DNA of 64,000 nucleotides, taken from IMG/VR virus record IMGVR_UViG_2049941000_000050; one strand, 5' to 3'. The translations under genes and the position numbers were made by a program. Each line of letters begins with the position of its first letter. Positions within the stretch are counted from its first letter, which is position 1. The notes beneath the pieces are model-generated. The model was given only the letters and a program-made list of their open reading frames with translations, was not told the DNA's origin and made no database searches. Positions 4-57,275 of this stretch are shown here, piece by piece. Source of the DNA: an uncultured virus (IMG/VR IMGVR_UViG_2049941000_000050). Taxonomy: Duplodnaviria; Heunggongvirae; Uroviricota; Caudoviricetes.

Positions 4-675
4 GTTGCAACTCGCACGTACGCGGAAGATGAAACTCAATGGAGACAATGTTTTCGGCGTTGTTAAAAAGTTGCAACTCGCACGTACGCGGAAGATGAAA
101 CTTTGCCCCAGATTTTCCAGCACTACGGGAATTTCGTTGCAACTCGCACGTACGCGGAAGATGAAACCAATGATGCCAGGNNNNNNNNNNATATGAACCA
201 TTGGGCGGGGCGTATCCACAATGGGGACGAGAATTTCCTGANNNNNNNNNNGGTGCTTTTGACAGAGGTTTTGAACTCCATAAGCGTAACTTCCCGATAT
301 TCNNNNNNNNNNCCCGATGGTATCGTTAACGGCGGAAATCGGTAGTTGCAACTCGCACGTACGCGGAAGATGAAACAGTTATTCTTTCGACTTNNNNNNN
401 NNNATTCTTGCGATTACGGTTTTGTCGCTGATTGTTGCAACTCGCACGTACGCGGAAGATGAAACCGTAGTGTTTCGGCGGGGAACAAATCCCCGCTGTG
501 TTGCAACTCGCACGTACGCGGAAGATGAAACCAATGATGCCAGGTCTGGNNNNNNNNNNCTTCCGCCGTGATTTCGTTGCAACTCGCACGTACGCGGAAG
601 ATGAAACCAATGATGCCAGGTCTGGAAAAGGTTTTGACCGAAAGTTGCAACTCGCACGTACGCGGAAGATGAAAC
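4..675 (+). CRISPR. CRISPR array 1, 8 copies of 32-bp repeat GTTGCAACTCGCACGTACGCGGAAGATGAAAC, spacers ~34-36 nt; leader probably off-window to the left
   Basis: Identical repeats start at 4, 70, 136, 345, 434, 500, 576 and 644. The GCT before repeat 1 matches the leader junction of array 2. Internal N gaps and a repeated spacer start (CAATGATGCCAGG x3) indicate imperfect assembly. Confidence 0.95.
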
Positions 676-692
676 GCGACCTTGGTTTGCGG

Positions 693-2258
693 TGAATTCT
701 ATGCGAGGCTAAAGACCTCGCATCTTCTTACTTCAGCGTTCTAACTTGACATCGGCACTACCAGTGCTTTTGACAGAGGTTTTGAACTCCATAAGCGTAA
801 CTTCCCGATATTCCGTCGGTACTGAAATCTTGTTATTGAATACCAAATTCTTGATGCTCAACATGTTCTTGGCACTGTGGATGTCCCTATCCTCGTGATA
901 TCCACATTCGCAGACATATGTTCGTTCATCAAGTCCGATTGAATGCTTCTTGCCACATTTTGGACACCACTTTGTTGTTGGGATATACTTGTCCAGCAAT
1001 ATGGTTTGCGGCAACGCCTTCAATTTTTGTTTGATGCGACCCATGCAGGAGTGCTGAACCTGTTTTCCAAACACACCTTTTTGCCAACTTGATATTTGTT
1101 CATCTTGCATGACAATACAATCATATTGCTTCAGCATATGAACTATCTTGTTCGCCTTGTCTGATTTTTTGTTGCCAATCTTCTGGTATTCTCTTTGTAT
1201 TTTCTTTACTGTCTTGTATCTATTGCTAGAACCTTTTTCTCTGCGAAACATCTCTCTTTGAAGTTTCTTGAGTCGTTCACTTTCTTCAATAGATACATCT
1301 ATCTTTTGTCCTTCGCTTGTTGTTATGTTGGTCTTGATGCCAAAGTCCAGACCAATTTCCCTCCCATTTGTCTTTTGTGTTTTCCAATTTTCCTTGTTGA
1401 TGAAACATACCACTTTCAGATAATATCCATCTGGCTTTTTCACCAAGTTTGCATTTGCCAATTCGTCAGCAATTTGAAGTTGTCCACCAGTCTTCACCAG
1501 AACATCGCCATGTATGCCTTGAATTTTCACCTTGTTGCACGACTTGAACTTATATGTTGTTCCATATTGCTTCAGGGGGATGCAAGCCAATTCTGACTTG
1601 AATTGCAAGTTGCCATGTTTTTGATGCCCCCTTTTGACTAATGAACAAATAGCCTTTTCATTTTGCGCCATTCTTGTGAGGATTGCTTGCTTTTGCTGAC
1701 CACTCAATACCTTCAATTCAGACTCGATTGAATTCTTGTCTTTGTCATAATGAACTACGGTTTTGATGCTGGTCGTATTGATTGCATTCAATTTCTGCCC
1801 ATTGTTGCGCAAGTTCAAAACGTGATTGTAGAACCATTTTCCCTCCACGAACAATTGCTCAAGTTCTTCTCGTTGTCTTTTGTTCAATCGTTTTTCCACT
1901 ATCTTGCATTCATAGCAACGAAGCACTTGATTTTGTCTGCGAAGTTGAGTAGCCAATAGAGCGTTCTTGATGGCAAGTTTCTTACCATCATCACATTTTC
2001 CTCTATTTTCTACTTTATTGTTCATCATATCTATTTACAATTATACAAAGATTCTCATTCTTCTTGTATAATATTTTTTACACAAATTTGCCGAAAATCC
2101 ATGTTGTTATCGTATATTATTTTGAATATTTTTCGCGTCAATTCACATGCGACACTAAAGATGTCGCATCTATCTTGACGCAATTCTTGTATAATATATA
2201 TTTGGAAAGGAATGGCGAATTCATCGCAACCACTGAAGATGGTTGCGTTTCCTTCGCC
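693..2258 (-). mobile_element. TnpB-only IS200/IS605-like element 1
   Basis: Right-end hairpin ATGCGAGG-TCTTTAG-CCTCGCAT followed by ..TTCA at 693-724. A distal hairpin motif at 2214-2258 is nearly identical to 33819-33863. Composition differs from the phage backbone. Left boundary approximate. Confidence 0.7.
733..2028 (-). CDS. tnpB: TnpB family RNA-guided nuclease (431 aa)
   Basis: RuvC-I GLDFGIK, RuvC-II-region MQDEQ, Zn ribbon CPKC..CEC, RuvC-III DRDIHSAKN. Confidence 0.92.
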   Translation of the reverse strand: MMNNKVENRGKCDDGKKLAIKNALLATQLRRQNQVLRCYECKIVEKRLNKRQREELEQLFVEGKWFYNHVLNLRNNGQKLNAINTTSIKTVVHYDKDKNSIESELKVLSGQQKQAILTRMAQNEKAICSLVKRGHQKHGNLQFKSELACIPLKQYGTTYKFKSCNKVKIQGIHGDVLVKTGGQLQIADELANANLVKKPDGYYLKVVCFINKENWKTQKTNGREIGLDFGIKTNITTSEGQKIDVSIEESERLKKLQREMFRREKGSSNRYKTVKKIQREYQKIGNKKSDKANKIVHMLKQYDCIVMQDEQISSWQKGVFGKQVQHSCMGRIKQKLKALPQTILLDKYIPTTKWCPKCGKKHSIGLDERTYVCECGYHEDRDIHSAKNMLSIKNLVFNNKISVPTEYREVTLMEFKTSVKSTGSADVKLER

Positions 2259-2267
2259 GAGTAAAGT

Positions 2268-16803: not shown

Positions 16804-16853
16804 CCGAAAAGAAGTTGACATTCTTCAACAAATCGGGTGAACTAATGGCGACC

Positions 16854-18189
16854 TTAAAAGGTCGCATCTTCATGTTTCACAGTCCCATAGCTTATTCCGA
16901 ATTTCTTCTGAAAAGAGGCTAAGAACTCCGCACGCTTAACTTCCCTCTGTTCCGGAGGTACGTTTATCATATCCACTATTTCAAGCATATTCTTTGCCGC
17001 ACGAACGTCTCTGTCTTCAGATATACCGCATTTACAGGAAAATACCCGGTCGGACAGTTTTAGTTCATGTGCTTTTCCACATTTCATACATACCTTGCTG
17101 GTCGGAATAAACCTGTCTAAAACCACTACGTTCGGCAGTGTTTTAAGTTTGGATTTGATTCTTCCAAGACAGCTATGCTGAATCTGTTTTCCGAACAGAC
17201 CTTTGTGCCAGTTTTTCAACTGCTCGTCCTGAATGACGACGCGAGAGTACCTTTTCAATTTCGATACAATCCGATTCGCCATGTCGGTTCGTCTGTTGTT
17301 TATTTTCTGATAACACTTCCGAAGTTTTTTTCTGTTTCTCATCCGGTTGTTAGAACCCTTAACGCAATGGTTCATCCGTTTGCTTGCTTTTTTAAGGGAT
17401 TCAGTTTCTTCAACCGAACAATCCATGGTTTCACCTTCCGAGGTTGTCAGACTGTGCTTGATTCCAAAGTCGATACCTATCGACTTTTTGACTTTTTCTT
17501 TTTCTTTGAAATTGGTTTTTGGCGTGTATGTGGTCACGGCAACGAAAAACCCGTCCGGTTGGTTTAGTATTTTTACGTTAGCGTACTCGATTTCCCGCTC
17601 GTTTATGAACTGTTCCAACCCGTTTACGTGGACTTTCCTACTCACGCCCTACAATTTCATTCCGGATTTTCCCCTGAATGAGTAGGTACTTTTAAACTGC
17701 TTTAACCCCACGGACCTAACTTCTGAAACGAAACCCAATTCGCCGCGTTTTATGTTTTTTCTCTTTATGTTGCTAACAATCGATTTTAAGTTTGACTTCA
17801 CCTCGTCGACCACCTCTTGAATTTGGGACGCCGAAATGAACCTCAACAGCCTGTTTTCAAATTCCCCGGATTTTGTTTTAACCGGGATTTCGGTTTTCGA
17901 ATGGATTACCGGTAGTGTGTCCCAGTCTGCCTTTTTCGACTTTATGAGGCTGATGATATAATTTCTTACCCATTTTGCCTCAACAAAAATCATCTTTAGC
18001 TCTTCTTTCTGTTTTTTCGAGAGGCGGTTATTCTGTATTTTAACTTTGAATACGCGACAGACCTGAAATNNNNNNNNNNNNNNNNNNNNNNNNNNNNNNN
18101 NNNNNNNNNNNNNNNNNNNNNNNNNNNNNNNNNNNNNNNNNNNNNNNNNNNNNNNNNNNNNNNGTTGTATTCCACTTGGTTGTTGTCAT
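16854..18189 (-). CDS. tnpB: TnpB family nuclease with an in-frame TAG at 17649-17651
   Basis: ORFs 17649-17993 and 16854-17645 are in one frame (GMKL*GVSRK) and collinear with TnpB 733-2028 (KVKIQGIHG). GIDFGIK, IQDEQ, CMKC, DRDVRAAKN. N gap near the N-terminus. Confidence 0.85.
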
Positions 18190-18280: not shown

Positions 18281-18727
18281 ATGGTCAACAGAAACGAAGA
18301 GGTTTATTCCAGAAGAAACCACGCGAAACACCGTGTTTTTTACCATATTATATTTTCAACAAAATACAGAAGAAGATGTTTGGACGGAATAATGCCGGAA
18401 TTGAAAACCAGTTTCAAACGCGCCGAAAAAATGTCCAACGGTCTTTGGAAGATTGAGATGGTTGAAACGGATAAGGAAAAAATCGACCATGTTCATTTTT
18501 TGATTAGGGCCGTCCCACAAATTTCGCCCGGGGAAATAATCCACAAATTAAAACAATTTAGCACGTTTGACGTTTGGCATAATGAAAAATGTAGGGAAAT
18601 CTTATCCAAATTTTATTGGAAAAATAAAAAACATGGTCATATTCTTTGGACCCACGGATATTTTTGTTCTTCCGTGGGGGAAGCAAGTTCGGAAACCATA
18701 AGGAGATACATTTCATCACAAGGTTAA
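18281..18727 (+). CDS. tnpA: IS200/IS605 Y1 transposase
   Basis: YHIIFSTKYRR, HUH motif DHVHFL, W..GYFCSSVG....IRRYI..Q. Confidence 0.95.
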   Translation: MVNRNEEVYSRRNHAKHRVFYHIIFSTKYRRRCLDGIMPELKTSFKRAEKMSNGLWKIEMVETDKEKIDHVHFLIRAVPQISPGEIIHKLKQFSTFDVWHNEKCREILSKFYWKNKKHGHILWTHGYFCSSVGEASSETIRRYISSQG

Positions 18728-18792
18728 TCCCGCTTCACATGACAACCCTAAAGGGTTGCATCTATCGCGGGAATTTCTTGTATAATTGAACC

Positions 18793-19602
18793 ATGCACAT
18801 GAACAGAAGACGGTTTATTGGAACGCTCATTGGGGGTCTCGCGGCTAATTGCGTCCCAACGTTCGCGTCGGAGGCAAGCGAGTTCGAGAAGTGCAGGAAC
18901 GACATCCTGTATTTCGTCGACAACCATCTCGTGGTGATAGACAGTCTATACGGGAACTTGAAGATGTCCCCACAACAAAGGGAATATCTTAAGCGAATGT
19001 CTGAGGTGAAAGACCATCTTTTCTGCGCGAAGGGACGCCAGATTGGAGCAAGCACCGCAAACCTGGTGTTCGCCCATTGGAAAACCAGGTTCTTTGAGAA
19101 TCAGAGAGTGTTCATAGTTGAACCTAGCCACGGGATGGCGAGATGCATGAAAAAGATGGACGGTTGCATTTTCCATAGACCAGCCTGTGTACAAAAGGGG
19201 AGTCTGATTCAGATTGCGACTCCCACGATGATTGAATGCGGAATTGACTGGTCCGACCCGAACAACACTTTTATACTGGACGAATACGCCTGGTGGAACA
19301 GAGGTTGCATGAACGAGAGTAGGTTCACTGACCTGAACAGCACCCTCATGGGTTCGCAACCCGCGGGTTCCTCCACGGGCCATTTCATTGTCGTGTCAAC
19401 CCCTGTTGACCACAAGGACTTGTTTTGCACGTTTGTCACTGGTGTGGACGATTCGAGGAGACTGGTTCTTCCAAACAAAGCCATAAACGAGCGGTCTGAG
19501 TGTAGTGCAACAACCAGCCTGGACGGAAAATACATTCTCCCGAAGTTCTCTTCTCCGGAAGAATTAAGACTAAAATTGATGCTTATGGGAGTCGAATCGT
19601 GA
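18793..19602 (+). CDS. terminase-ATPase-like paralog with Tat-like N-terminus and family-A C-terminal motif
   Basis: MNRRRFIGTLIGG..; EFEKCRNDILYF; KGRQIGAST; FILDEYAW; VVSTP; PKFSSPEELRLKLMLMG. Confidence 0.65.
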   Translation: MHMNRRRFIGTLIGGLAANCVPTFASEASEFEKCRNDILYFVDNHLVVIDSLYGNLKMSPQQREYLKRMSEVKDHLFCAKGRQIGASTANLVFAHWKTRFFENQRVFIVEPSHGMARCMKKMDGCIFHRPACVQKGSLIQIATPTMIECGIDWSDPNNTFILDEYAWWNRGCMNESRFTDLNSTLMGSQPAGSSTGHFIVVSTPVDHKDLFCTFVTGVDDSRRLVLPNKAINERSECSATTSLDGKYILPKFSSPEELRLKLMLMGVES

Positions 19603-19717
19603 CAGAAACTGGTGGGATTGTCAATGACCGACGCTGAGAAAATTTTAAGGTTGAAGCAAGAAAATCTCTGGCGACATCAGCCAGAATCTCAACGGTCTTT
19701 AGCCGTTGAGTAGTTCA
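19603..19717 (+). mobile_element. orphan TnpB right end / omega-RNA-like remnant
   Basis: ATCTCAACGGTCTTTAGCCGTTGAGTAGTTCA is nearly identical to the right end at 35141-35173. Left boundary uncertain. Confidence 0.65.
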
Positions 19718-32117: not shown

Positions 32118-33818
32118 TCGTACTCCTCTAGAATCTTTTCAATCTTCGGAAAAACCGTCTCGAGGATTCCGTCCGCCGCGTTCGCGAGCCTGTTCAGAAA
32201 CGGGCGGATTTTACAGATTTGCGAAAACACGGAATTTAGAAAAATCTCTCTTTTTCCGGGATTTTCCGCGAATATGTCCGGGGTAATCTTTCCGGAAATT
32301 TTGTTCAGGAAAAGCTGTTCCTCGCCGTCCCACCCGGAAAGTTCCGTGAACAGGACGTAGTTGCTGATGTGGTAGTAGTTTCTCCAAAACGGTAAAGGCT
32401 CCTCCCGGCAGTAAAGCTCTATCTTGTTTCCGAACGGGAACGCGCAGGTCAAGTCGTGCATAATTTTGTAAAACCGACTCGATAAAAAAATAGAATACGG
32501 TTCGATTACGCTCACGATTCTCGAGAATATCCCGAAGTTTTCCGTAAAATCGATGACAAAATTGTAGGAGTTGTAATTGCCGTATCTGTTCGGGGGCATT
32601 ATTAAGAGAAAGAGATAATTCGTCCCGTCGGGAAACGTTCCGTAGTTTTCAAGCTTCTCGTTTATGTCGAATTTTCTGGTCGGAACGTTGGAAATGGTTC
32701 TATTCTTACTGACACATTCCTCGTATCCTTCTGCGTAGTATCTGTGGTTGATTTTAACGTTGCGGCTCATTTTCCCTTTCCTCCTTAAAAAAAGTCCCAA
32801 TTCTCTCAAAGAACTGGGACGCATTTTAAACTACGGGATTCAAAATGTCAAGCAGTTTCGTCAAAAAAAAATCAACTATCCATCCACGTTAATAGAATCG
32901 GGCTGTCCCTATCGATGTAGTTCTCGATTTTATTCAGCGCGTAATCCACGTCGGTTATGAATTTTTTAAGCTCAACGAGAAAATGGTCGACGTCTTCCCT
33001 GGCGAATTTCGAGGAAAATGCGTTTTTGAAATTCTCCCCCGGAAATAGGGAGAGGAAAAGTTTTTTATCCTTAATAGCCTCGGAATACTCTTCCACACTA
33101 TCATTGAAATCATCCCATCTGCACCACATTTTCGTATGGATGTCAATGGAATCCAGCAGTTTGGCAAACGGGTTTTCGGACAGAAAAACCGGCCACCCCG
33201 GGTTAAGACAGGTCAACGGGGGAAAATCAGAACGGGCGAAATTCCCGAAAAGACCGAGACCGGTGTCTAATGGCTCCGGGATTCTGTACCCGTACGAATG
33301 GAAATCCTCGAAGAACGCGGTCAGTGGAACCAATTTCCCCTCGGTTCTCAGATGCACGAAAATTTTAGAATGGAGCGAGCACGACATCCGTTATTCCTCT
33401 CTCAATTTCCACTTAATGTGTATTTTCGGGTTTCCCTCTCCGGTGAACATTATGTTGTTTTCGGTATCTGGGGTTTGGCGAATTACTTCCACCAACTCCC
33501 TGATTTTATCAATGAACCTGAGCGATTCGTTGTTCTTCTTCGCCAGATTCCCAAATTCCTCTGGGGAAACGTTCCCAAGTTTAGAAGCTTCTTCCGGGGA
33601 AAGGTCTCCGGGTTCAAAAACCTCCCTTGGTGCAAGCGGGCACATTTTTTCATAAAGTGTTTCGAACATTCCGTCTTCTCCAAAAAAATCAGTGGTCTCG
33701 GTTTCGGAGCGGAGAGTTCTTGTCAGCGTTCCACAGTCTATGACTCTATTTTTCATTTTTTATTGGTGTTGCGAGTTGGCTCTTTTGGGGTATGGGTAAG
33801 TTTTGTTCATATTATTTT

Positions 33819-35173
33819 GGCGAAGGAAACGCAACCTTCTTCAGAGGTTGCGATGAATTCGCCATCTCCTTTCAATATATTATACCACTTGAAAATATTT
33901 TGTAACGTTGCTCATTCATAATGAAGTTTCTCAGTAAAATTGTGTAAATAATATTGTAATGAGAACATACAAGGTCAAATTGGAATTCGAGAACCAGAAT
34001 GTCAAGGACTTCTGGAAGAAACGCATTTGCCTTGTACAAGATTGCTACAACTACGCTTCCAACATCACCTTCAACGAGAAGGTTCAACTTGGTCTGAAGT
34101 CAGTTCATAGTAGACTATATTATGAACTCAGAGGCAGGTTCAAGGAACTTCCTTCTCAGATATGCATTCAAGTTGAACGGGCATTGATTGCGAACTACAA
34201 GTCGGTTCGTTCCAATGGACACCACTTGGACAAGCCAATTCAGATGAAGCATCCTGCAATCCAGCTCGACAAAAGGTTGTTCAGCAATCTTACAAGAGAG
34301 TCCTTCAAGTTGAGCAATGGAGATGGCAATCACAGGTCAGAAGTCAGATTCGTGACATATCCCAAGTTCGACCAATTGGCTGAGATGTACAAAATGTGCG
34401 ACCCAAAGCTGACCTACGATGTTGAAACTGACGTATTCCATGCTTGCGTTCCATTCCTCGACATCCCACCAACTCCACACGAAGACAGTTATATTGGAGT
34501 TGACCTTGGCGTGAAGAGATTGGCTACGCTTTCTGATGGCACATCTTACTGCGACAAGGAATACCTTGCGAATAGGAGAAGGATTCGACACAACAAGAGG
34601 ATGCTTCAATCCAAGAAGAAACACTCTCATTCTGCAAGGACGAAGTTGAAGAAGCTTCGTCGAAAGGAAGCCAATGTCTCCAAGAACACGTGCCACCATC
34701 TCGCCAATGCAATTCTGAAGCATCGTGGTTCTGTGGTGGTGATGGAGGACTTGACGAAAATCAAGCAAAGTACATCAAAGACGAAAGAAGGGTTCAAGAG
34801 AAAGCGTCACAACAACATGCTCTCTCAAGTTCAGTTCTATTTGATAAGACAGATTTTGACCTACAAGGCACTACTCAGGGGAAAGCGAGTAGAAACAGTT
34901 TCGCCCGAATACACATCCAGACAAGATTGCAGATATGGGTCTGGAGTTGGATGTAAACGTCAAGGGTGTAGGTTCTATACCAAAGATGGAATGGTGTTCG
35001 ATGCAGATTGGAATGCATCTATAAACATCATGAATCGGTATAAACACTCCACTTCGTTTGAGTTGCCTATTGATGGCAAGTTGAACTTGGTGAACAGGTT
35101 GCTTCAACCAACCAATAGTTCCGTGAGCAATCACAGAGCAATCTCAACGGTCTTCAGCCGTTGAGTAAGTTGA
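33819..35173 (+). mobile_element. TnpB-only IS200/IS605-like element 2
   Basis: Left hairpin motif 33819-33863 shared with element 1; right-end hairpin CTCAACGG-TCTTCAG-CCGTTGAG then ..TTGA. Confidence 0.72.
33959..35164 (+). CDS. tnpB: TnpB family RNA-guided nuclease (401 aa)
   Basis: GVDLG, VMEDL, YTSR.DC, DADWNASIN. Confidence 0.92.
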   Translation: MRTYKVKLEFENQNVKDFWKKRICLVQDCYNYASNITFNEKVQLGLKSVHSRLYYELRGRFKELPSQICIQVERALIANYKSVRSNGHHLDKPIQMKHPAIQLDKRLFSNLTRESFKLSNGDGNHRSEVRFVTYPKFDQLAEMYKMCDPKLTYDVETDVFHACVPFLDIPPTPHEDSYIGVDLGVKRLATLSDGTSYCDKEYLANRRRIRHNKRMLQSKKKHSHSARTKLKKLRRKEANVSKNTCHHLANAILKHRGSVVVMEDLTKIKQSTSKTKEGFKRKRHNNMLSQVQFYLIRQILTYKALLRGKRVETVSPEYTSRQDCRYGSGVGCKRQGCRFYTKDGMVFDADWNASINIMNRYKHSTSFELPIDGKLNLVNRLLQPTNSSVSNHRAISTVFSR

Positions 35174-35178
35174 ATTCT

Positions 35179-35854
35179 GTTTCATCTTCCGCGTACGTGA
35201 GAGTTGCAACGCGGAGCTAATACTCCCATCCTCAGACTATTAGGGTTTCATCTTCCGCGTACGTGAGAGTTGCAACTTTCGAGATTAAAAGATACAGCTT
35301 GACAGCCGTTGTTTCATCTTCCGCGTACGTGAGAGTTGCAACGCAAAAACCACAAGCACACCTTCCACGATGGGGTTTCATCTTCCGCGTACGTGAGAGT
35401 TGCAACCAATAAGCTTGAAACTGTGACCAAGGAATTATCGGTTTCATCTTCCGCGTACGTGAGAGTTGCAACTGCGGAAAACCGGGGTNNNNNNNNNNCT
35501 CATTGATGACCCGCAAACGGCGGAATCAGCCCAGTTTCATCTTCCGCGTACGTGAGAGTTGCAACGCCCAGTTCTTTCTGGACATTCTTTAAACGGCGGT
35601 TTCATCTTCCGCGTACGTGAGAGTTGCAACTGCGGAAAACCGGGGTNNNNNNNNNNTCAGGGCTTTCGGAAGAATTTCGATTCGTTCCGGTTTCATCTTC
35701 CGCGTACGTGCGAGTTGCAACAAACCAAATCGAAAAGAAGGCTGTTGTCGGAAGATGTTTCATCTTCCGCGTACGTGCGAGTTGCAACGGAAGTAATATC
35801 AGCCAAAAACAAGCACACGGGAGTTTCATCTTCCGCGTACGTGCGAGTTGCAAC
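35179..35854 (-). CRISPR. CRISPR array 2, 10 repeats GTTGCAACTC(T/G)CACGTACGCGGAAGATGAAAC
   Basis: Repeats start at 35179, 35245, 35311, 35375, 35441, 35534, 35599, 35690, 35757 and 35823. Seven are the T variant, three the G variant. Two N gaps. Confidence 0.95.
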
Positions 35855-36144
35855 AGCGGAAAACCGGGGTTTTCACCCCGCTCTGACCCATTTCTGAATC
35901 AGTTCTGTTCTCGTCTCCGAGGACATGGCGTGGAAATCCGCCTCTATCTAATTCATTTTTGGCAAAAACCGTTAAAATTTCTGTCAAAAACTTTCTTAGA
36001 GTACTTTTTTCTTCCGCGAACCTCCCAGGAAAAACCTGTGAACTTGGGGTTCGCGGAAGACTGGCGTTAAAAAAAAACAGTTTTTAAAAAACATTTTTTC
36101 TTTCAACGCCGAGGATTGTATCACAGTGACCAACCCTTTGTCAA
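35855..36144 (-). promoter_or_regulatory. CRISPR leader with inverted repeat and sigma70 promoter
   Basis: TTGACA (36144-36139), 18 nt, TACAAT (36120-36115). 13-bp inverted repeat TCTTCCGCGAACC/GGTTCGCGGAAGA at 36010-36060. Homologous copy at 40047-40199. Confidence 0.8.
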
Positions 36145-36197: not shown

Positions 36198-37634
36198 TTA
36201 TACGGCTTTCTCCCCCACTTTTTCAGATTCTAACTCTTCCATCGCCGTTTTGTAGCACTTTTTCATAGCCACGGCGCAACATTTCTTCGTGAAACCGTAT
36301 CCCTGCGCGTTGTCGACGACTGAGCCGTCTTTCTTGTTGACGATTACCCACCGCTCGTTTTCGTTCCCGTCCTTGTCTTTCAAAGCCCTTTTCTCAACGT
36401 CCAAATCCTCCGGGGTTATTCCCTCGGGAAGAGTCTTGGCAAATTTCTCGTCATTCTTTTTGTAACGCTTCGCCTCTTCGCCGCCCCTCCAGATGTTTCT
36501 GTTGCGACCACATTTCTCGATACTGATGTTATCCCGTTTAGTCAGTTCTCCCGATTCCTCTCGCTTTTTAAGCCGTTCGTTGCGCCAATGGTGGGGATAT
36601 GAACCCTGTCTCGGCTTATACTCCAGCTTCTTCGGGAACGATATGTCGTTTCGGTCCTTGAGGTGCTCCAAATCCTCGTCCGACCACACACCGGCTTTGC
36701 GACCGATTCCGATTGCTCCGTTCACGTCGGCGTTTATGAGCTTCCTCTTTCCGGTCCTCGGGTCGATTACCGACGATTCAAACAGTCCGCGCTCGACCCG
36801 CCTTCCGAGAAACTTGTGGTCCTTCCTCGCGTCCCTGCCTTTCTTCCACATCAAAAGCTCCTCTTTTGCCGCGTGGTCGGTCTTCGAGGTATAAGATTCT
36901 TCAATCTCTTCGAGAAGAATCCCGGCATCCTCGCATTTGTACTTGAGTTTTTCAATCAGTTTTTTGTGGGGCATCTGCGCAAATTTCTGGTTGTTCTTTT
37001 TGCCCATGTTCGATTCATTTTTCCAGTCCTTGTTGTACCCGACAACAATTTTTCCGATGTCGTTGTCTAAAGCCCACTTGACGATTCTTATCGAGACGTA
37101 ATCTAACTCGGTGTTAATCTTGTTGCCGCATTTCCGGTAGAGGTTCCGGATTCTCTCGGACGTTTTCCGCTCGCCTTTGTACTGGTGGTCGAGAACGCTC
37201 TTGAACTCGGCTATCAGCCTGTTCCGGTTCTGGAGAATCGACAGAACGGTCCCCCCGTCGATAAACATCGATTGGTCGATTTTTGTCCCGTTCGTGACGA
37301 GTGTGCAGAGCCTTTTCACACCCAAGTCAATCGAAAGAACGTTGTTTGGGTTGCATGGGTTGGTTTTGGGAATTTCTTTTTCGTAAGAGTATACGATTGC
37401 GACTTTATCCCCGCAATGGATAAGCTTAACGCTGGACTTTCTTCTTACGAACCAATTAAAATTCATAATATCCGGGACCCGCAAAACCAACGAGCCGCCG
37501 ACCGTAATCGTCCTTTTTTCGTAATTTATCCCGCTGTAATGACCGCTACCCTGGAAAAACTGAATGGTTGCGTAACTGTTAAAGATATTGTTCTCTCTGT
37601 CGTGTTTGTACTGCGGCGGGCGGGGCAACCCGTT
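36198..37634 (-). CDS. TnpB/Cas12-like RuvC protein with ~140-aa C-terminal extension; N-terminus lost in gap
   Basis: SIDLGVKRL, IVVGYNKDWK (rearranged RuvC-II type), EESYTSK, INADVNGA, then an extension including DNAQGYGF. No IS-end hairpin at the 3' end. Confidence 0.8.
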   Translation of the reverse strand, partial: NGLPRPPQYKHDRENNIFNSYATIQFFQGSGHYSGINYEKRTITVGGSLVLRVPDIMNFNWFVRRKSSVKLIHCGDKVAIVYSYEKEIPKTNPCNPNNVLSIDLGVKRLCTLVTNGTKIDQSMFIDGGTVLSILQNRNRLIAEFKSVLDHQYKGERKTSERIRNLYRKCGNKINTELDYVSIRIVKWALDNDIGKIVVGYNKDWKNESNMGKKNNQKFAQMPHKKLIEKLKYKCEDAGILLEEIEESYTSKTDHAAKEELLMWKKGRDARKDHKFLGRRVERGLFESSVIDPRTGKRKLINADVNGAIGIGRKAGVWSDEDLEHLKDRNDISFPKKLEYKPRQGSYPHHWRNERLKKREESGELTKRDNISIEKCGRNRNIWRGGEEAKRYKKNDEKFAKTLPEGITPEDLDVEKRALKDKDGNENERWVIVNKKDGSVVDNAQGYGFTKKCCAVAMKKCYKTAMEELESEKVGEKAV

Positions 37635-37879
37635 NNNNNNNNNNCAAAAATAGGAACTTCCTTTGCCTTTTAAACCGTTCACGAGATATATTATATGGAA
37701 AAAACTTCCGGAAAGAAAAAATTTTTCAGAAAAAAATTTCACGTTTTTTAAAGAAAAAGCTTGACTTTTCCGGACGTTTTTGATATAATTCGCGAAATTT
37801 TCGCCCTTCCTCTTTCAAGAAGGGTCTGAATTATACCAAAAACCCGTCAAAAAGTCAAGCTTTTTTTGGAGGAAAAACG

Positions 37880-38173
37880 TTAGTTTTTTTGAAACTTCCC
37901 GTTTCCCAGTTTAATATTATACACGTTTCTTTTGAGAAATTCTTCGGTGACGATGTTTTCCAGCTGTTTGTCCACCTCGGCTTTTGTCTGGAAGTTGTAT
38001 TTGATTGTCTTTTCGAAATTTTCCAAACCCAGTTTTCTGATGTCCCTGAGAAGAATTGGATTGTGCCCGAGATAACCGTCGTTTGGATTGTCCGTGGAGT
38101 GTTTCCCGACGTAGATTTTCCCGGTCTTTTTGTTTTTGACTTCGAAAATAATGTTGTTCTTCAGTTCCGGCAT
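37880..38173 (-). CDS. short Seg-like GIY-YIG domain protein
   Basis: IIFEV.N...GKIYVGKH..DGYLG...YNIKLG. Confidence 0.75.
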   Translation of the reverse strand: MPELKNNIIFEVKNKKTGKIYVGKHSTDNPNDGYLGHNPILLRDIRKLGLENFEKTIKYNFQTKAEVDKQLENIVTEEFLKRNVYNIKLGNGKFQKN

Positions 38174-38309
38174 ATTTTTTCTTCCTTCCTGAAATAGTTA
38201 CCCGAATAAAAAAAATCCCCCGGTATTTTTATTGGGGGATTTTAATTTTAAAATATAATTTTTAATATTATACGGATTGTTTTTAAAAAATTCCTCGGTG
38301 AGAAGCTCT

Positions 38310-39133
38310 TTAAACTTTTTTTCCATTCTCTCTTTCGTTAATATATTTTATCCAATAAATTCTGCCCAATTTCCATCCCCATCTTTCGTAATCAGACAAA
38401 TCTGTTTTGAGAATAAATTTCGATTCTTTTCCATTGTTCACCCAACAGCGAATGTGAGCTGGGTTAGACTCGTCAATTTTTTTAGGTTCAACGGCTCCCA
38501 TTCTCCACCCATTATTGAGATATTCATCAAGAAGATGTTTTTTAATCTATTTTTTTAATTTTAATTCGTTATTATGAATCCATACTGTATTATAATTTCC
38601 ATTTTTTCGCCTTTTAAGGATATTTTATTCTTTTCCCGTATTTTTTGTTTGGTTTCTTCCGTGTGATGTTTTCCTTTGAAATGATATGGATTTAAATGAA
38701 GTTTACAATTATAGAATCTATCTGGGTCGGTAGCCCATATCCGTTTTAACGCTTCGCTTATTTTCTTTCCCTTTTCTTTTCTATAATTTTCATTCGACCA
38801 GTTTAATTCTGCGGCCCTTTTAGTTCCCATATTTCGTATATCTGTGAAATTATTCTATTGACCGCCGACCCTTACATTATATGTATCTTCTCTAGAGACA
38901 AATTCTTCGTTTACTATTTCTCTTTCCTTTTGGTTCATTTCTTCAAATGAGTCGAAATCAAATAGTGTTTCCCGTTTGAAGTTTTTTCTTCCTATGATTT
39001 CAATGTCTTTAAGGAGGTCTTTTCCACTTCCGAGATATTCATCGTTTGGATTATATGTTTGATGTTGGCCGATATAGATTTTTCCATTTATTAGATTTGT
39101 AGTCTGATAAATGATGTAATGCTTTTTTTCCAT
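38310..39133 (-). CDS. Seg-like GIY-YIG homing endonuclease with NUMOD3; in-frame TAG and likely C-terminal frameshifts
   Basis: IIYQTTN..KIYIGQH. TAG at 38855-38857 joins it in frame to 38561-38830 (FKGKHHTEETKQKI). W..N..GW..G motifs follow in shifted frames. Confidence 0.72.
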
Positions 39134-39263
39134 AGTGATTTTACCTTTTTGTTAGAGAAGTCTTAGCGGAGACTTCAAAAATATTTACTGTAAAAAAAAA
39201 TCGACCACGGCTATGGAACCGTGGTCGATAATATCTTATTAGGCCGCTACCTAACAAGATTGA

Positions 39264-39612
39264 TGGTGGAGGTGAAGACGCTCTGCCCGTCTTGTCCGAT
39301 AAGCATTGGATTCGCACCCTCGTTCACGAGCTTAGCCGATAGTGGTTTTCCGCCGTTTACCACCGGCATCTTTTCGGCGGAATTTGTTTCCGTGTGTCTT
39401 GACCGGTACCGGAAACGTCTTCCGGTCAGAACTTGCCGTATGAAGGAAATCCGAAGGCTGTCAAGTTTCGCCGACGGTTCCTCGGCGGTTAAGCCGCCAT
39501 TGCCAACGAATAGTCGTCGTTTAGTTTTTTTGGCTTGTTTTTAGGAAGAACAAAGCCGTCTTCCGCTCGCGGATACGTCCAATATCCCACCGTCGAATTC
39601 TAATACACCCCC
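39264..39612 (-). ncRNA. ssrA: tmRNA; tag (A)DDYSLAMAA*
   Basis: 5' GGGGGTG..TTCGAC, 3' CACCTCC-ACCA with G3:U70; tag ORF at 39518-39489. Confidence 0.92.
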
Positions 39613-39684: not shown

Positions 39685-39765
39685 TTGTTGGAGTTTCATC
39701 TTCCGCGTATATGCGAGTTACAACAAAATCGCGTTTTTTCTCGCAGTTTCGCGAAGTTCCAACAA
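39685..39765 (-). repeat. solitary degenerate CRISPR repeat (39693-39724) within a long repeat/anti-repeat hairpin
   Basis: 29/32 match to the repeat. Arms TTGTTGGA/TCCAACAA, CTTCGCG/CGCGGAAG, TGCGAG/CTCGCA. Confidence 0.8.
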
Positions 39766-39769
39766 AAAA

Positions 39770-39823
39770 GGGCGGGAAGTATTTTTATTAATGCAAACAA
39801 AAAATAGGAACTTCCTTCGCCCC
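39770..39823 (-). ncRNA. short Y-RNA-like stem
   Basis: GGGCGAAGGAAGT..ACTTCCCGCCC; shares GTTCCTATTTT with 39846-39965 and 37645-37667. Confidence 0.5.
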
Positions 39824-39845
39824 GGAAATTAATTACCGAGAAATC

Positions 39846-39965
39846 GGCGGAGCGTATTTTTTCGGGTCGCTCTATCCAGTTGAGCTACGGAGCGGAAACC
39901 GTTCCGGGCGGATTCGAACCGCCAACTTACCCGTTTACCTTATTAAAATAGGAACGCTCTATGCC
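39846..39965 (-). ncRNA. YrlA-like Y RNA (circularly permuted tRNA mimic)
   Basis: Closing stem GGC-ATA-GAGCGT/ACGCTC-C-GCC; T arm GGCGG-TTCGAAT-CCGCC; closed acceptor-like stem; D arm GCTC-AACTGGATA-GAGC; TATAAT just upstream. Confidence 0.75.
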
Positions 39966-40014
39966 TTTTTCCCGGTTAATATTATACCGAAAATTTTCGC
40001 GGACATCGGGATTT

Positions 40015-40199
40015 GTTTCATTTTCCACGTACGTGTGAGTTGCAACTGCGGAAAACCGGGGTTTTCACCCCGCTCTGACCCATTTCTGAGCCGGTTCTGT
40101 CCCCGTTTCCGGGAACATGGCGTGGAAATCCGCCTCTATCTGGTCGGTTTTGGTGAAATTTGTTAAAAATCCCGTCAAAAAAACCTTCCAGAGTACTTT
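40015..40199 (-). CRISPR. single degenerate repeat (40015-40046) with a second copy of the leader
   Basis: GTTGCAACTCACACGTACGTGGAAAATGAAAC; 40047-40199 aligns with 35855-36007. Confidence 0.8.
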
Positions 40200-40343: not shown

Positions 40344-40419
40344 TGGTCTCCCAGAGAGGATTCCAACCTCCGACCCACGGCTTAGAAGGCCGTTGCTCTA
40401 TGCGCTGAGCCACTGGGAG
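40344..40419 (-). tRNA. tRNA-Arg(TCT)
   Basis: CTCCCAG/CTGGGAG-ACCA; ACGGC-CTTCTAA-GCCGT; T loop TTGGAAT. Confidence 0.9.
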
Positions 40420-40426
40420 CCGAAAA

Positions 40427-40503
40427 TGGTGCGCCCGGGGGGATTTGAACCCTCAGCCTTGCGGATAGGAGCCGCATTCTCTGTCCAGTTGAGATACGGG
40501 CGC
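40427..40503 (-). tRNA. tRNA-Arg(CCT)
   Basis: GCGCCCG/CGGGCGC-ACCA; TGCGG-CTCCTAT-CCGCA; T loop TTCAAAT. Confidence 0.92.
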
Positions 40504-43700: not shown

Positions 43701-46700
43701 AATAATTCTCTCTCGAAAACAAACCCAGAATTAAATTAATATATAAAAAAATTAGCCGACGGAAATCAACCCGTCGGNNNNNNNNNNAGTTCGAGTAAAT
43801 AATCCAGTAAAGAAGGATTTCACCAATGATAATCAAATTAGAAGGTCGAAAAGGTTTCATTTTCCAAACCCTTCTCCAAGGACTGAAGGAAGCCCACAAA
43901 GCCGGAACCGGCGGATACAANNNNNNNNNNACACGATGTGCAGTCTGCTCCTTCTCAACCCGTATTCGACGGTTTCCTCGTATCCGNNNNNNNNNNTCTT
44001 TTAATTTTTTAAATATAATTTCAGATTATTTCATTTTGTTATTTCGACCGGACTCTTCGAACTTGTTTGAATCCGTGGATGTAGGATAATATTCCCGATA
44101 ATCCGGGACAGCCTGACACGGGAAAAGAATTTTCCCGAACCGTTCCTTTTGGGAGTCAGACCCCTCTTTGTTGCCTTTTTCCCAGTTTGTTCCGTTCTTT
44201 CCCATATCACAGTCCCCGTCTATTCGTCTTCCGGTTTGTGGTTTCCGATTTGGTCAATAGCCACCCTCTCGACAAGATGGCCTTTCGCGGTATGGTTATA
44301 ATGACAAAGCGGGTTTAGACAAACCTCAAGTAGGTTGCGCGAACAGCCGAGAAAATTCTGGACATTTTTCAATCTCTTGAAATAGAGGGATTTCCCGCTT
44401 TTGACATTGATAATTTTGTAACAGAGATTTTGCTGGTTCTTTTGCATTCCAGACCCCTTTCCTTATTCCGCGAACGCGGAATTGTAATCCTTAACCGTGA
44501 GTTCAAGCTCTTCCAGTGGAATCTCGAGGTAGGATTCCCCGTCATAGACAACCGCGGTCTTCGACTTGTTTTTCGACAGACCGAGGTAGACCACCCTCTT
44601 TTTCGTGGCTTTCACAACCATCGTCATCATCATTCCAGACCCTCCAGTAACCTGTCTATCGACATTGCGAATGGCGTACCGGGAGTGCTGGCGAACACAT
44701 ACCCCCGCCCTTTGGCGGAAAGGAGTGCTTCCTTTTCCGTATCGAACTCCTCGTTCCAAAGACTCCTCCAATAGGAATCTTCCCATGTCCACTTTCCCGT
44801 CCGCAACGATTCGTGCAGAATTGCCGTTCTTCCCCCGTTCATTCCAAACCCCCGTTTCCGTTTCCGGCTATGTCGCCCTTTGCCATTTTTACTAGACCCC
44901 CATCGGGTCGGGGTTTTCTTGGTTTCCCCGACCCGTTCTTGTTAACAACCGCTACCGCCTGTCATATTCCACACAGTACCCGTGGCGGCTGACGTGGCCG
45001 TCCACGAACACCACGTACCGCCAAGACCCGTTTTCCTTCGCCCAACGGATACCTTCGGAAATACTGTCGAATTCCGTGGGTTCGGACTCGAAACCGAACC
45101 TTGTGTACAACTGCACCTCGCATTTCTTCTGTTTTGGCATTTAGTCACCTACTTTCATCAGATACACGCGGTGGCAAAACTGCGTGGACTTACCGGACGG
45201 CTGAAGGTAGTACAAGAGGCCGCGGCGGCAACCGCCGCCCGCGTACACGCGGATATCCTCGTCGTTTTGCGGCTTTCTTGTGACATAACCCCTTTGCCAA
45301 GAGGTGAACGCATACTTCCAACCCTGTTCCTTCGCTTCTTTAAGTGTCATTTCCATTTCCATACCTCTCTCCTTTCGTTTCTGACGGGCGGACAAAAGCC
45401 CGCCCGTTTTGCGTTTTCCGCTACTCCTTGAAATCGTCAGCCTTGAGATAGCCCCCGACATTCGGATACACTTTAATACTGACGAACTCCCTTTCGTATC
45501 CCCACTCGATTACCTCCCCGTTATCCTTAACGAAGGTGTTTTGCGGGTTGATTACGCCAAGAATAGTATCATAGACTCCGGCAACGAGCTCTTCGGGAAA
45601 TCTCCCATCGTCATACGTTCCGTAGCTCACGCGCTCGACACATTCCTTCGGCTTGTAGAAATAGATGTGAACGTCTATTCCGACTTCCGGCGCGGTCTCG
45701 CCCCGCTCGAACTCAAACTGGACGGTATTCCCGATGTACTGGCCGTATTTCTGAACGAGAAGGCTCTTCGCCTTTTCGTAAAGTTCAGAACGGAGGTTGT
45801 CTTCCTCGGTTCTGTTATGCAGTAAGACGGCGTTTTCCTCTTTGCCCGACCCCAAATCCCAATCGTCCTTGGGCGTGTAGGCTTGGACTTCCGCCAAAAC
45901 CGCACCGCAGACTTTGAACATAGTCTCGACCCACATCTTGGCGAACCCGTTCTCGCACTCGACAACATACCCGTTGTCGGCCTTGCGCTTACTCACGGTC
46001 TCACCCCTCTCTTCCCAAGCCTTTTGGATGCCGTCAAGGCGTTGCATGATTTGCTTGGTCGCGGTGGCTTCGTCCTCGTAATACCACATATCGGTGTCTA
46101 TGGTCGATGCGCGACCGTAGCGGCTCAACGATTTAATCGTGTATATCATTTCCCTATCCCCCCTCAGTCGATTCCCAAACTCTCTTTCAGTTCGTTCAGT
46201 TTCCGCTCGGCGAATCTGTCGATGAAATCGTAGTAATCGCAGTATTCGTTGGCATCCGGATTTCCGGCAACGGTTTCCTGATATTCCTTCTCGGCCTCGA
46301 CGGCCCACGGGATGATATCGTTAACAACGATTTCGTGTTGCCCGTATGGAAGGCCCGCCCTGTTGTAAAGCTCTTGGAGCTTTTCAAAAATCCCGATGCC
46401 GATGAAAACCGCGTTCTCAACTTCCGTCTCTTGGTAGCTCATTTGCCGTCCCCTTTCTTGTTCGTCTCGCTGACCTTCAGCTCCCTCGCCTTTTCCCAAA
46501 GCTTGAGGGATTTCCGCGTTACGCGGATATCGGCTTTTAGCGACTCGACCTTCTGACTGTCTGCCGCAATCTGCCGCTTCCGCTGTGTGATGACCTTGTC
46601 AATCTCCTTGAGTGACATTCCCTCGCCCAAACAACGGGCTTGGGAGTTTTCGCTCTTCTTCTTGTCCGACATAACCGTACCCTTCCGTTTTTACGAGACC

Positions 46701-49700
46701 CCCCCATCGGGGGGAAACACTATCCCTCCCGAAAACGATGCAAACTTTAACACAACCCGTAGAACTTTGTCAAGCCGATTCGTAGAATTTTTTTAACTGA
46801 TTCCGCAAATCAGCCAAGTCCCGTCCAACCCTTTCCCGAAAACCGCGACACTCGTGTTCAGCTCCATCGCGATTTCCCCCATCTCCAACCGATGGGCTTC
46901 GCGCTCGTAGCGCAGTATGACAAACCGCTTGTCATCGTGGATGTCCACGCCGACAAGCTTCGACTCGATGTTGTGTGTCCGCCGATACTGCTCGCCGAAA
47001 CCGTATGCGGTCATGACCACCGAAACATTGTTAGCCGTCTCGATAACTAATCTCATTCCGTCACTCCTCTCTCGTTGGCAAGGTGACCCCCGATAAAGCG
47101 GAAGAGAAACCCCATCTCTTCCAAAAACACCGCGTATTCTACATCACCCGTAGAATTTTGTCAACAAGAAATCCGTTATTTTTTAAAATTATTTTTGTCG
47201 AAGCCGTATAATATTGCGCGGGCTTTTGGTCTGCAAAAATGTTGATAACCTGTAGATAACTTTTTTTCTCTTTTTTATTGACAAACCGGTGTTCGGTTTG
47301 GTATAATTCGCCGGATTTCTTTTCCACGAGGAGGCGGATTTTCGCGAATTATATCATTTCTTTTTCTTTTTGTCAAGAAAAAAATAAAAAATTGTTTGAA
47401 GAAAAAACCCGTGACGGGAAATTTGATTAGCCCCGTCCACGGGTTTTCGTTATCATGACAACTAGCGAACAAAAGAAACAATTTTAAATTATTTCATTCC
47501 GCTTTTGCGCGGCTCTTTTTCGGAGAAAAAGCCTTCCCGACCTTTTTCTTCCACACAGAATCGTTCCGGAGTGTTCCGGTCTTCCCCCATTCCTTAAACC
47601 CGCCCTCGATTATTACCTTTTCGTCTTCGTCCAACACATAGAAGCCCTCATCGTCCAATTTAATTTCAATGTCTTTCCGCTCTTTCAGAACCACAGACCC
47701 GTCATTATCGACAAGGTAATGCTCCTCGAAAAAGTTCTGTTCGGCTTCCCGACCCCAAATCTCCGCCTTGAGGTTAAGGTCTCGGCAAAGGGACTGCACG
47801 GAAACCAGTCCCTCGTCTTTGAATTCCTTTTCCATCTCCGTGTCGAGAATCATGCCGCAACCCCAATCGACATTGAGAAAGACGGAGTATGTCCCGTCAA
47901 CGATGCCGCCTTGGTTCAGAAACTCCGCACGGCACAGATGGTGCTTGTAATCTGTCCCCTTCGCTATGCTTCTGAATTTCTTCAGAGACTCGTCTTCGCC
48001 CCTGACGCACAACTTAACGAAACAGCAGTTTGCCATAATTTCCGACCCCTTTCGAATTATCAGACCCCTTTGGCTTCCTTGAGAAGGGATTCGACCTCTT
48101 CCCGTTTAGCCACGATTTTGGACATAAGCTCCCCGTGGGGGCTTTCCGTTCCCGCGTTCCATTCGACACGGGCGTTCTCGTCAAGGAAGAACCATTCCTC
48201 GTCACGGAGTCTTTCGTACTCCGTGACCGAGGAAACCAACTTGGCGAGAATTTCTCTCGCCCTATTGACCATCTTTAAACTCGCCTTTCGTCTCCACCTC
48301 GAAATCGCCCGTCCACGAACAGTATGACGGTTTGATTTCCCCGTTGGCTACCATGTTCTCGACTATTTCCCTAGCCTGCTCCGGAGAGGAAGCTTTGACC
48401 TTGCGCGTTGTCCCCATGTCGAAATGAATATCGACAACGAAGGTTTTTCGCGTGTCGGTCTCCGTGACCTCTTCTATCTTGAAGGACTTGGCCTTGCCCT
48501 TACTAAACCCGTTCGCGTTGTCGGGTTGGCGGTGGATAACCATGCCGCTGTTGTCAGTGATGAACACTGTCGAATCGTCCGTCCGGTTGTCGTAGTAATA
48601 TAACATAATTTCCTGCACCATCCTATCGTGGACGAAAAGGAACTGGTCTTCATCGACCAAGGTATAGTTTCTTTCGCCCCCGTCCGGAGTCATTTCCGTG
48701 CATTTCAAACTGTACTTCTGAACCTTGACACCCATTCTCTTGTCCCCTTTCTTTCGTTAGCAGTGCATCTCTGTCTCTACCTCTTTGCTTGACCAATCTG
48801 AAGTACCCACGAACTCCTTTGAGTAATCTTCAGATTCGTAAGCCATTTCCATAGCCTTGTCTTCCGACTCCGCTTCGACTATCACCTCGCAATCGTAGCT
48901 TTCCGTCCAACGGACGATGTAAGCCCGCTTGTTCTTGTTCCCGACCTTTTCGTTTTTCACCATAGCTCATTTCCCTTTCTTTCGTTAGCAGTCCGTGTCT
49001 GTGAAGAAGATTCCACATTCTAGGTTGGTCAGAGCATTGACCGCTCTGTTCCGTTCCGCCCCGTCCGTTCTAGAAATCCACTTCATCAAGTAGTTCTTGA
49101 AGGCGGTTTTCGTGGAAAACCATTGGGTTGTACCGTATGCCTTGATTCCAAACTCGCCTGGCTTTTCTTCCCCTTGGTTCGCCTTGGCATCGTTTTCCAT
49201 GTCAGACCCGTTAGCACCTTCGACCGTGTCGAGGGTGACAATCTCGGAGTCTATATACTCCAAATCACCTAGTTCCGAATCTTGAAGGCGGGATTCCGCC
49301 ATCTCTTCCGCTTCCTCTTCCGAGTTTGCGCGAACAATGTAAGTCAGCCGACCCTCAACCTTGTAAACAACCTCAAACAACATAACCTTACCCCTTTCGT
49401 TGCGGGCGGGGGAGACCAGTTCCCCCCACGCCCAAATTCGTTCACTTCCGATTTTCAGAAACCAATCTCAAAAATCGGGTTTACTTTCTCATACCCCGAG
49501 AATTTCTCCTTGTTTCCCGTGATTTCGAGTTCATCCCAAGCCCACGCTCCGGCGAGGTCTTCGTTAACCCCGCGATAGTCTCCACCACCTCTGCCGTTGC
49601 CGACCGCAGTCAAAATGGCGAACGGGCAAACAATCCACGGGGACTGCTCATTCAGCGCATCAAAGTAATCGTCAAACGAGATGTACTGCCCTTTCGTGTG

Positions 49701-57127: not shown

Positions 57128-57203
57128 AAATCCCCCAAAAACAGTTTCCGTCTAAAGCCACATTGGCTTTAACCGAACGGAAACCGACATTCCCAAGGGA
57201 AAC

Positions 57204-57275
57204 ATATCCGTGCGTGACTCGAACACGCATTCCGCAACTGGTGCGGAGTCTTTTCCGTTTAAAACGAACGGACAC
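57204..57275 (-). ncRNA. tRNA-like element, atypical anticodon arm, no CCA
   Basis: TGTCCGT/ACGGATA; D-like GTTTT-AAACGGA-AAGAC; TCCGC-ACCAGTT-GCGGA; T arm GCGTG-TTCGAGT-CACGC. Confidence 0.6.

Follow-up and report, generated by a model that had tools for sequence, protein, structure and literature searches.

Two TnpB transposons at the tails of both CRISPR arrays of a phage: probably ordinary insertions into target-rich DNA

The 64,000 nt window analyzed here, from an uncultured virus of the Caudoviricetes (IMG/VR record IMGVR_UViG_2049941000_000050), appears to be a segment of a large rumen phage, recovered from metagenomes of the bovine gut, and contains two CRISPR arrays, each of them adjoining the right end (RE) of a different insertion sequence (IS) that carries a tnpB gene. 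Array 1 (4-675, plus strand) comprises eight identical 32 nt repeats, with five 10-N gaps and duplicated pieces in its interior, and lies next to element 1 (692-2195, minus strand; the left boundary is approximate), containing tnpB1 (733-2028, minus strand; 431 aa). Array 2 (35179-35854, minus strand) has ten repeats and two 10-N gaps and lies next to element 2 (33811-35174, plus strand), containing tnpB2 (33959-35164, plus strand; 401 aa). The 32 nt repeat, GTTGCAACTCGCACGTACGCGGAAGATGAAAC, had 20 matches in the window with three or fewer mismatches, against none in 100 shuffled sequences; two degenerate orphan copies are located at 39693-39724 and 40015-40046. The gap-free spacers are 32-36 nt long, and the seven repeats of array 2 closest to element 2 share a G>T variant.

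A leader-like block of 153 nt (35855-36007, minus strand) borders array 2 on the side away from element 2; a second copy of this block (40047-40199) adjoins an orphan repeat, and bases 1-3 of the window are the last 3 nt of the same block. The leader side is therefore opposite to TnpB1 and TnpB2, and both tnpB genes are convergent with the arrays. A type V reading, with arrays co-oriented with TnpB1 and TnpB2, was rejected since the leader-like block is found on the other side in both readable loci (35855-36007 and 40047-40199). A Pfam scan of 89 open reading frames (ORFs) of the window gave no match to Cas1, Cas2 or Cas4, and the spacers had no match elsewhere in the window outside the arrays or in any related locus compared. 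Likewise, the repeat had no matches in viral contigs, metagenome contigs or genome contigs (the last searched with a degenerate pattern), and the leader block had none in metagenome contigs.

The scaffold is rough, with 26 runs of N in the window, seven of them inside the arrays (five in array 1 and two in array 2). The array interiors are poorly scaffolded, with oddities at 168-312, 532-559, 35473-35498, and 35631-35656: one spacer start is present three times, a 50 nt copy of positions 764-813, from the 3′ end of tnpB1, appears inside array 1 at 253-302, and leader ends ("...CCGCA") are placed ahead of inner repeats within the arrays. These oddities suggest either population variants of the arrays or mis-joins. 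Separately, the minus-strand region 39693-40199 looks like an orphan or decayed mini-array: it holds the leader copy with one degenerate repeat (40015-40199) and, 322 nt further and just upstream of a transfer-messenger RNA (tmRNA) gene, another degenerate repeat (39693-39724).

Both elements are of the IS200/IS605 type and lack tnpA; they have subterminal hairpins at both ends and no terminal inverted repeats. Hairpins with an 8 bp stem and a TCTT(C/T)AG loop occur six times in the window and in none of 50 shuffles, and correspond to the left end (LE) of element 1 (2147-2169, minus strand), its RE (701-723, minus strand, followed by AGAATTCAC), a solo LE described below, the LE of element 2 (33830-33852, plus strand), its RE (35143-35165, plus strand, followed by TAAGTTGA(A)), and an RE-like hairpin at 19688-19710. 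Each RE terminates 9 nt beyond its hairpin; that of element 1 reads ...GAATTCAC, its limit being set by copies from three other studies, whose alignments start at position 692. The two TnpB proteins matched PF01385 and PF07282, as well as the guided_TnpB model NF040570, with 106.6 and 143.4 bits (cut-off, 100), and retain the D/E/D residues of the RuvC site (GLDFG, QDE, and DRD in TnpB1, with QDE conserved in 12 of 12 aligned relatives; GVDLG, MEDL, and DADWN in TnpB2).

Site 1 also contains a 72 nt solo left-end stub from an element-2-type IS (2196-2267, minus strand; hairpin at 2225-2247), flanked by ATCAT (ATGAT on the plus strand, at 2268-2272), which overlaps the start of a phage gene (2268-2702). 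A 47 nt block found upstream of both tnpB genes was initially a candidate for the LE of element 1, and was rejected as such because copies in other samples stop at 2175-2195, and not at 2258; therefore, this shared block represents a separate, solo element-2-type LE stub. From the stub, an element-2-type element may also have inserted here, as a third event, and the hybrid left end at site 1 could have originated from two nearby insertions fused when the DNA between copies of the ATATTATAC motif, common to both, was deleted. The left-end regions also have TATAAT-like promoters directed outwards (33879-33906, minus strand, and 2186-2195, plus strand), facing genes 33391-33756 and 2268-2702, respectively, which could maintain expression of the adjacent phage genes after insertion.

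In array 1, 17 nt separate the end of the last repeat (675) from TGAATTC, which begins at 693; the last repeat of array 2 begins at 35179, with a gap of 5 nt from TTGA (35170-35173). No N run crosses either junction. Additionally, a Logan contig of 6961 nt from run X1 spans 646-2400 with no differences from the window, and a further X1 contig links the repeat to the reverse complement of the RE of element 2; X1 is probably the source sample, and the Logan contigs come from an independent assembler on that same sample. The junctions between arrays and elements are thus real. The initial annotation of this DNA, made from the letters alone, is supported in part by these data: both elements are genuine TnpB transposons with the RE towards the array and are convergent with it, their TnpBs are indeed quite divergent (they are barely alignable; BLASTP E = 0.027), and the possibility that the junctions were scaffold artefacts, which it had raised, is countered by the N-free joins and the contigs of the second assembler. 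The gaps of 17 and 5 nt were correctly counted, although the true flank at site 1 is 16 nt, as the RE of element 1 ends at 692. The claim that no repeats remain on the far side of the elements fails at array 2, where a degenerate repeat lies beyond element 2.

This degenerate terminal repeat (33750-33782, minus strand; 19/32 identical) overlaps the start of gene 33391-33756 and is followed by a 28 nt segment (33783-33810, minus strand) whose plus strand has TTCAT as its last bases (33806-33810), which would be both the target site and the target-adjacent motif (TAM). On the other side of element 2, 4-5 nt (35175-35178, plus strand) lie between the RE and the last intact repeat of array 2. Excising element 2 in silico at its LE boundary restored a spacer of 33 nt (28 + 5 nt), followed by the 33 nt segment at 33750-33782. 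The 19 of 32 positions matching the repeat in this segment include CAACTCGC and ATGAAA in register, and only 37 of 20000 shuffles scored as well. The split spacer and the degenerate repeat beyond element 2 therefore indicate that the element is inside the terminal spacer of array 2, and not past the array. At site 1, the 16 nt between the last repeat and the RE (676-691, plus strand), which in antisense would be the TnpB1 guide, probably represent the beginning of the terminal spacer of array 1. A half-repeat rebuilt across the site 1 junction was considered and lost strength, because a good score needs a 17 nt flank (7/5000 shuffles) and not the 16 nt flank supported by the reads (264/5000 shuffles). 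No X1 contig joins 691/692 to 2259/2268, as an empty-site allele would; however, contigs lose rare variants and are hence uninformative on absence.

Relatives of both elements occur at other sites. Relatives of element 2, with 86-87% amino-acid identity, were found in two IMG/VR phage records (L001 and L002), one of which has a large terminase (TerL) just 37% identical to that of the window; the three copies are alike as far as ...AAGTTGA(A), beyond which they diverge. No array lies near either relative, and neither record contains the CRISPR repeat. Copies of element 1 with 90-99% identity were present in contigs from three other studies (runs X5, X6, and X7), all aligning from position 692 and with unrelated flanks; none of the three showed the repeat in the flank shown or aligned. 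The LE motif of element 2 had no matches in genome contigs and, in viral contigs, matched just the two known loci. Elements 1 and 2 are ordinary mobile units of the IS200/IS605 type. A 151 nt contig from run X7, in which the RE of element 1 (692-715) is joined to the LE hairpin region (2164) via 24 other bases, is a miniature, gene-less derivative of element 1 in another sample.

The five available flanks of element-2-type left ends (window element 2, L001, L002, the site 1 stub, and one contig from run X7) all end in (T/A)TCAT, 20-21 nt ahead of the hairpin foot, a spacing near that of IS608. This motif occurs 257 times in the window, counting both strands, and 55 of these sites are outside ORFs, as delimited with a crude ORF set; 22 of the 55 are in the arrays. 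The arrays are rich in (T/A)TCAT because every repeat has TTCAT on its antisense strand, and some spacers contain the motif as well, so that arrays make up around 40% of the candidate sites outside ORFs. If insertions persist mostly outside genes, it is then unremarkable that two of the four elements in the window are in arrays. The window also encodes a Y1 (IS200-like) TnpA (18281-18727, plus strand; PF01797, E = 1.3e-22), which likely mobilizes elements 1 and 2 in trans.

On balance, we favor the explanation that both insertions are the product of ordinary transposition into target-rich, harmless DNA, and do not reflect a new CRISPR function; the position of both elements is best explained by the target content of the arrays together with tolerance of the insertions. 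Accordingly to this scheme, two distinct TnpA-less TnpB elements would have transposed into the leader-distal tails of both arrays, mobilized in trans by the phage's own Y1 TnpA, with element-2-type ends integrating 3′ of (T/A)TCAT sites, which are concentrated in the arrays. An insertion in the middle of an array would sever spacers from the leader and hence be selected against; if a repeat were hit instead, the resulting guide would match every repeat beside a TAM, and the element would cut its own genome; tail-end insertions would be the only survivors. The RE faces the array because of the position of the target motif, and the omega-RNA guide would therefore comprise the remaining terminal spacer plus antisense repeat. 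Such an array-derived guide would be a by-product, serving retention of the element or its homing to the empty site, with no role in CRISPR. The initial annotation had proposed that two parallel occurrences suggested targeting or selection; this holds in a plainer form, with arrays holding many of the candidate sites and tail-end insertions being tolerated, and not as array-specific targeting, given that close relatives of both elements occupy sites unrelated to arrays, an outcome that the annotation itself had listed as refuting.

Several observations weigh against this explanation. No terminal repeat was found beyond element 1, and the site that preceded this insertion is not reconstructable; the LE flanks of element 1 are mixed, with CAAT in three of five. 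The proposed role of (T/A)TCAT as a TAM draws on just five flanks, all from a single type of end, the count of sites outside genes was made with a crude ORF set, and the selection filter on insertion position is itself conjectural. Moreover, that the terminal spacer specifically was hit by two of four elements is still improbable by chance (estimate, ~0.01). Finally, among 104 TnpB loci from viral contigs, none lay within 3-4 kb of a CRISPR array (a tandem repeat in L001 was considered not to be one), so the pattern of TnpB at arrays is not common, though arrays are rare in phages.

The guide of an omega-RNA is the DNA directly outside the RE. For element 1, the predicted guide would be CGCAAACCAAGGTCGC(+GTTT...), and for element 2 it would be (A)TTCT+GTTTCATCTTCC..., that is, (A)TTCTGTTTCATCTTCC.... 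The partial spacer that had been proposed as guide 1 is plausible. The suggestion that a TnpB could be aimed at the repeats found no support. Within the window, the closest second match to guide 2 carries two mismatches in the TAM-proximal part and no adjacent TTCAT, and TnpB would therefore not be aimed at repeats generally; guide 1 had no second site in the window with two or fewer mismatches. Likewise, the similarity or complementarity of the omega-RNA regions of elements 1 and 2 to the repeat was at the level of chance, being matched by 573-1369 of 2000 shuffles. As judged from their sequences, neither TnpB shows signs of co-evolution with the array. A tracr-like or antisense role for these RNAs depends wholly on presumed read-through and has a low probability, interesting as it is.

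A third gene, tnpB3 (36198-37742, minus strand), is TnpB-like, lies upstream of the leader and array 2 in the same orientation, and is interrupted by a scaffold gap (37635-37644). Its ORF begins at 37742, which is therefore not where the protein truly starts: a database protein of 632 aa (P0001) is 100% identical over 383 aa and adds 246 N-terminal residues with a CxxC...CxxC motif, from which the full TnpB3 would have ~700 aa. A structured region 3′ of the gene (36010-36144, minus strand) has a strong promoter-like TTGACA-18-TACAAT at 36144-36115 and, after it, a long A/T-rich hairpin; the predicted folding of the 3′ region is very stable (z = -6.2). A 12 bp hairpin at 36060-36010, which ends where the leader homology starts, has arms matching the repeat in 11 of 12 positions in both sense and antisense (11/2000 shuffles), and this element could be tracr-like or derived from an omega-RNA. 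We found no close relatives of tnpB3 in viral contigs; a profile search retrieved 80 ordinary TnpB loci, with 32-44% identity and aligning from residue 180 or later, which say little about any association with arrays, and the regions downstream of these 80 loci showed no coherent repeat-like RE end. By its sequence and arrangement, TnpB3 is a better candidate than TnpB1 or TnpB2 for a type V-like effector of the arrays.

Other explanations were weighed for the presence of the elements at both arrays. The arrays could be a mechanistic hot spot, with replication forks stalling at the edge of heavily transcribed arrays, head-on with transcription of the precursor CRISPR RNA (pre-crRNA); TnpA would be attracted there and insert in the lagging-strand template at the fork-nearest edge, giving the RE-to-array orientation. 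As described in one study (PMC5027513), IS608 is drawn in this manner to forks stalled at repressor-bound operator arrays, in the lagging-strand template and at the fork-proximal edge; here, the three array-adjacent tnpB genes all point at an array and site 1 was apparently struck twice. However, three alike orientations would occur by chance in 1 in 4 to 1 in 8 cases, nothing indicates that the arrays stall forks, and there is no sign of fork direction (GC skew, if replicative, has the forks at site 2 moving the wrong way, though skew follows gene direction), and we regard a hot spot as unlikely. We consider very improbable a common descent of both sites, by which a single ancestral module of array and element, resulting from one original insertion, was duplicated in inverted orientation and site 1 later had its tnpB body exchanged. 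The layout is indeed a mirror (array1-RE1...LE, 31.5 kb, LE...RE2-array2), with 57 nt inverted copies of the element-2-type LE that are 89% complementary, an element-2-type LE stub retained at site 1 and near-identical repeats in both arrays; yet the LE flanks are unrelated, with the TAM at the start of a gene in site 1 and 54 nt off in site 2, the RE flanks are also unrelated (16 nt versus 4-5 nt), and the downstream genes are non-homologous.

A further explanation is functional coupling. Read-through omega-RNA from element 2, with its anti-repeat guide, would pair with pre-crRNA as a nascent trans-activating CRISPR RNA (tracrRNA) or an antisense regulator, a live case of the route to type V systems by a transposon next to an array. 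The RE of element 2 is flanked by 4-5 nt and then by a perfect antisense repeat, the array is 3′ of tnpB as in type V loci, and a heterogeneous population is hinted at by the breaks and alternative joins of the assembly within the arrays. Type V arrays are stated to lie downstream of cas12 in one source, where insertion of a transposon near a pre-existing array is left open as a possible origin (PMC10691335), and TnpB genes are described beside heterogeneous arrays in Methanoperedens elements (preprint 10.1101/2023.08.02.551345). Conversely, the junction is not conserved, with arrays adjoining neither of the two element-2 relatives nor any of the three copies of element 1 from other studies; the flank of element 1 has 16 nt of unique sequence, and no anti-repeat, at its start, TnpB and array are convergent, given a leader located on the far side, neither scaffold region contains an anti-repeat, and the sole hairpin resembling repeat and anti-repeat belongs to tnpB3. 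Coupling is, in our opinion, improbable. Its boldest version is equally doubtful: the phage would have been caught twice at the first step of the proposed type V route, a TnpB transposon landing beside a pre-existing array, with the guide of element 2 already an anti-repeat whose read-through RNA could pair with every pre-crRNA repeat as a primitive tracrRNA or an antisense brake, and with TnpB3, by the leader, possibly at a later stage. Lastly, the joins between arrays and elements could be chimeric, the scaffolder having misjoined DNA where repeats abound, in keeping with the 26 N runs of the window (seven within the arrays) and with the tnpB1 piece (50 nt, at 253-302) and leader ends scaffolded inside the arrays. 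Neither junction spans an N run, though, and a second assembler reproduced 646-2400 exactly and also joined the repeat to the RE of element 2, making an artefact extremely unlikely.

Both elements resemble IS200/IS605 TnpB elements of the IS608 and ISDra2 type, namely in their subterminal hairpins at LE and RE, a Y1 HUH TnpA, an apparent preference of element-2-type ends for insertion 3′ of a fixed short motif, which would also be the TAM, a predicted cleavage of the RE ~9 nt past the hairpin, a guide expected to come from the RE flank, and a TnpB of ~400 aa that appears to be of the RuvC-active type, judging by its residues. Unlike those, neither element contains tnpA (one lies 15 kb off in this phage), loop and end motifs are common to two tnpB cargos that barely align, and the elements are in a phage, both at the tail of a CRISPR array. 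In type II systems, and in several of type V, the anti-repeat RNA is the tracrRNA; the predicted read-through omega-RNA of element 2 would resemble it in ending 3′ in a perfect anti-repeat, although it would originate from the guide segment of a mobile element and not from a dedicated gene. With TnpB-derived type V systems (V-U groups, Cas12f, TranC, and the Methanoperedens arrays), the loci share an array 3′ of a tnpB-like gene and signs of array heterogeneity. TnpB1 and TnpB2 differ from them in having the leader on the far side, relatives without arrays, and scaffolds without anti-repeat; TnpB3 alone (~700 aa, co-oriented, and with a repeat-like hairpin) fits. The parallel with IS608 at operator arrays (PMC5027513) lies in single-strand transposons at the edge of a tandem array in fixed orientation; there, a protein roadblock in Escherichia coli was shown by experiment, whereas fork stalling at CRISPR arrays is here a conjecture. 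Among the titles and abstracts listed, we found no report of TnpB elements within terminal spacers.

If ordinary transposition is correct, this phage offers a natural example of how the content in target motifs makes CRISPR arrays a magnet for IS200/IS605 elements, from which selection would be expected to leave tail-end insertions only. It also carries a practical warning, in that a TnpB beside an array should not be taken as its effector until the leader side and the context of its relatives have been checked. As a single phage here combines two arrays with a TnpA, TnpBs of four lineages and, among these, a candidate effector derived from TnpB, the window is a useful test bed, and these co-resident parts could be used to test whether the guide of a transposon begins to interact with an array.

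The fourth lineage, tnpB4 (16854-18068, minus strand), adjoins no array; its product is 49% identical to TnpB1, and its RE hairpin plus TAGTTCAC ends near 16845 (minus strand). It contains one in-frame TAG, either because it is a pseudogene or because TAG is recoded; one internal TAG is likewise present in the terminase match of a related phage record (G002). Beside tnpB4, the region 18281-19716 (plus strand) contains the TnpA gene, an uncharacterized ORF of 269 aa and, downstream of TnpA, the element-2-type RE hairpin at 19688-19710.

Other genes of the window include those for a large terminase (60838-62625) and an RNA ligase, both T4-type, as well as for a clamp-loader-like ATPase of the AAA+ class and a pyrimidine-dimer glycosylase. 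A tmRNA (Rfam, 75.6 bits) and two tRNA-Arg genes (anticodons TCT and CCT) are located at 39264-39612 and 40344-40503 (minus strand), and a scan of the window with Rfam at gathering threshold gave nothing beyond one tmRNA and two tRNAs; there are also tRNA-like fragments around 39860-39940. Array 2 is surrounded by a cluster of selfish or accessory genes. Between tnpB3 and the tmRNA, two small ORFs (37880-39151, minus strand) have weak matches to TIGR01453 (group I intron endonuclease; E ~0.001-0.002) and read as GIY-YIG-like. Finally, the region 46700-57750 contains families of repeated intergenic blocks, such as GAAACCCTATCCC...AACAAGACATAATTTA...TTTGTCAAC and TTGACAAAC...GGTATAAT, which are probably promoter or regulatory cassettes of the phage.

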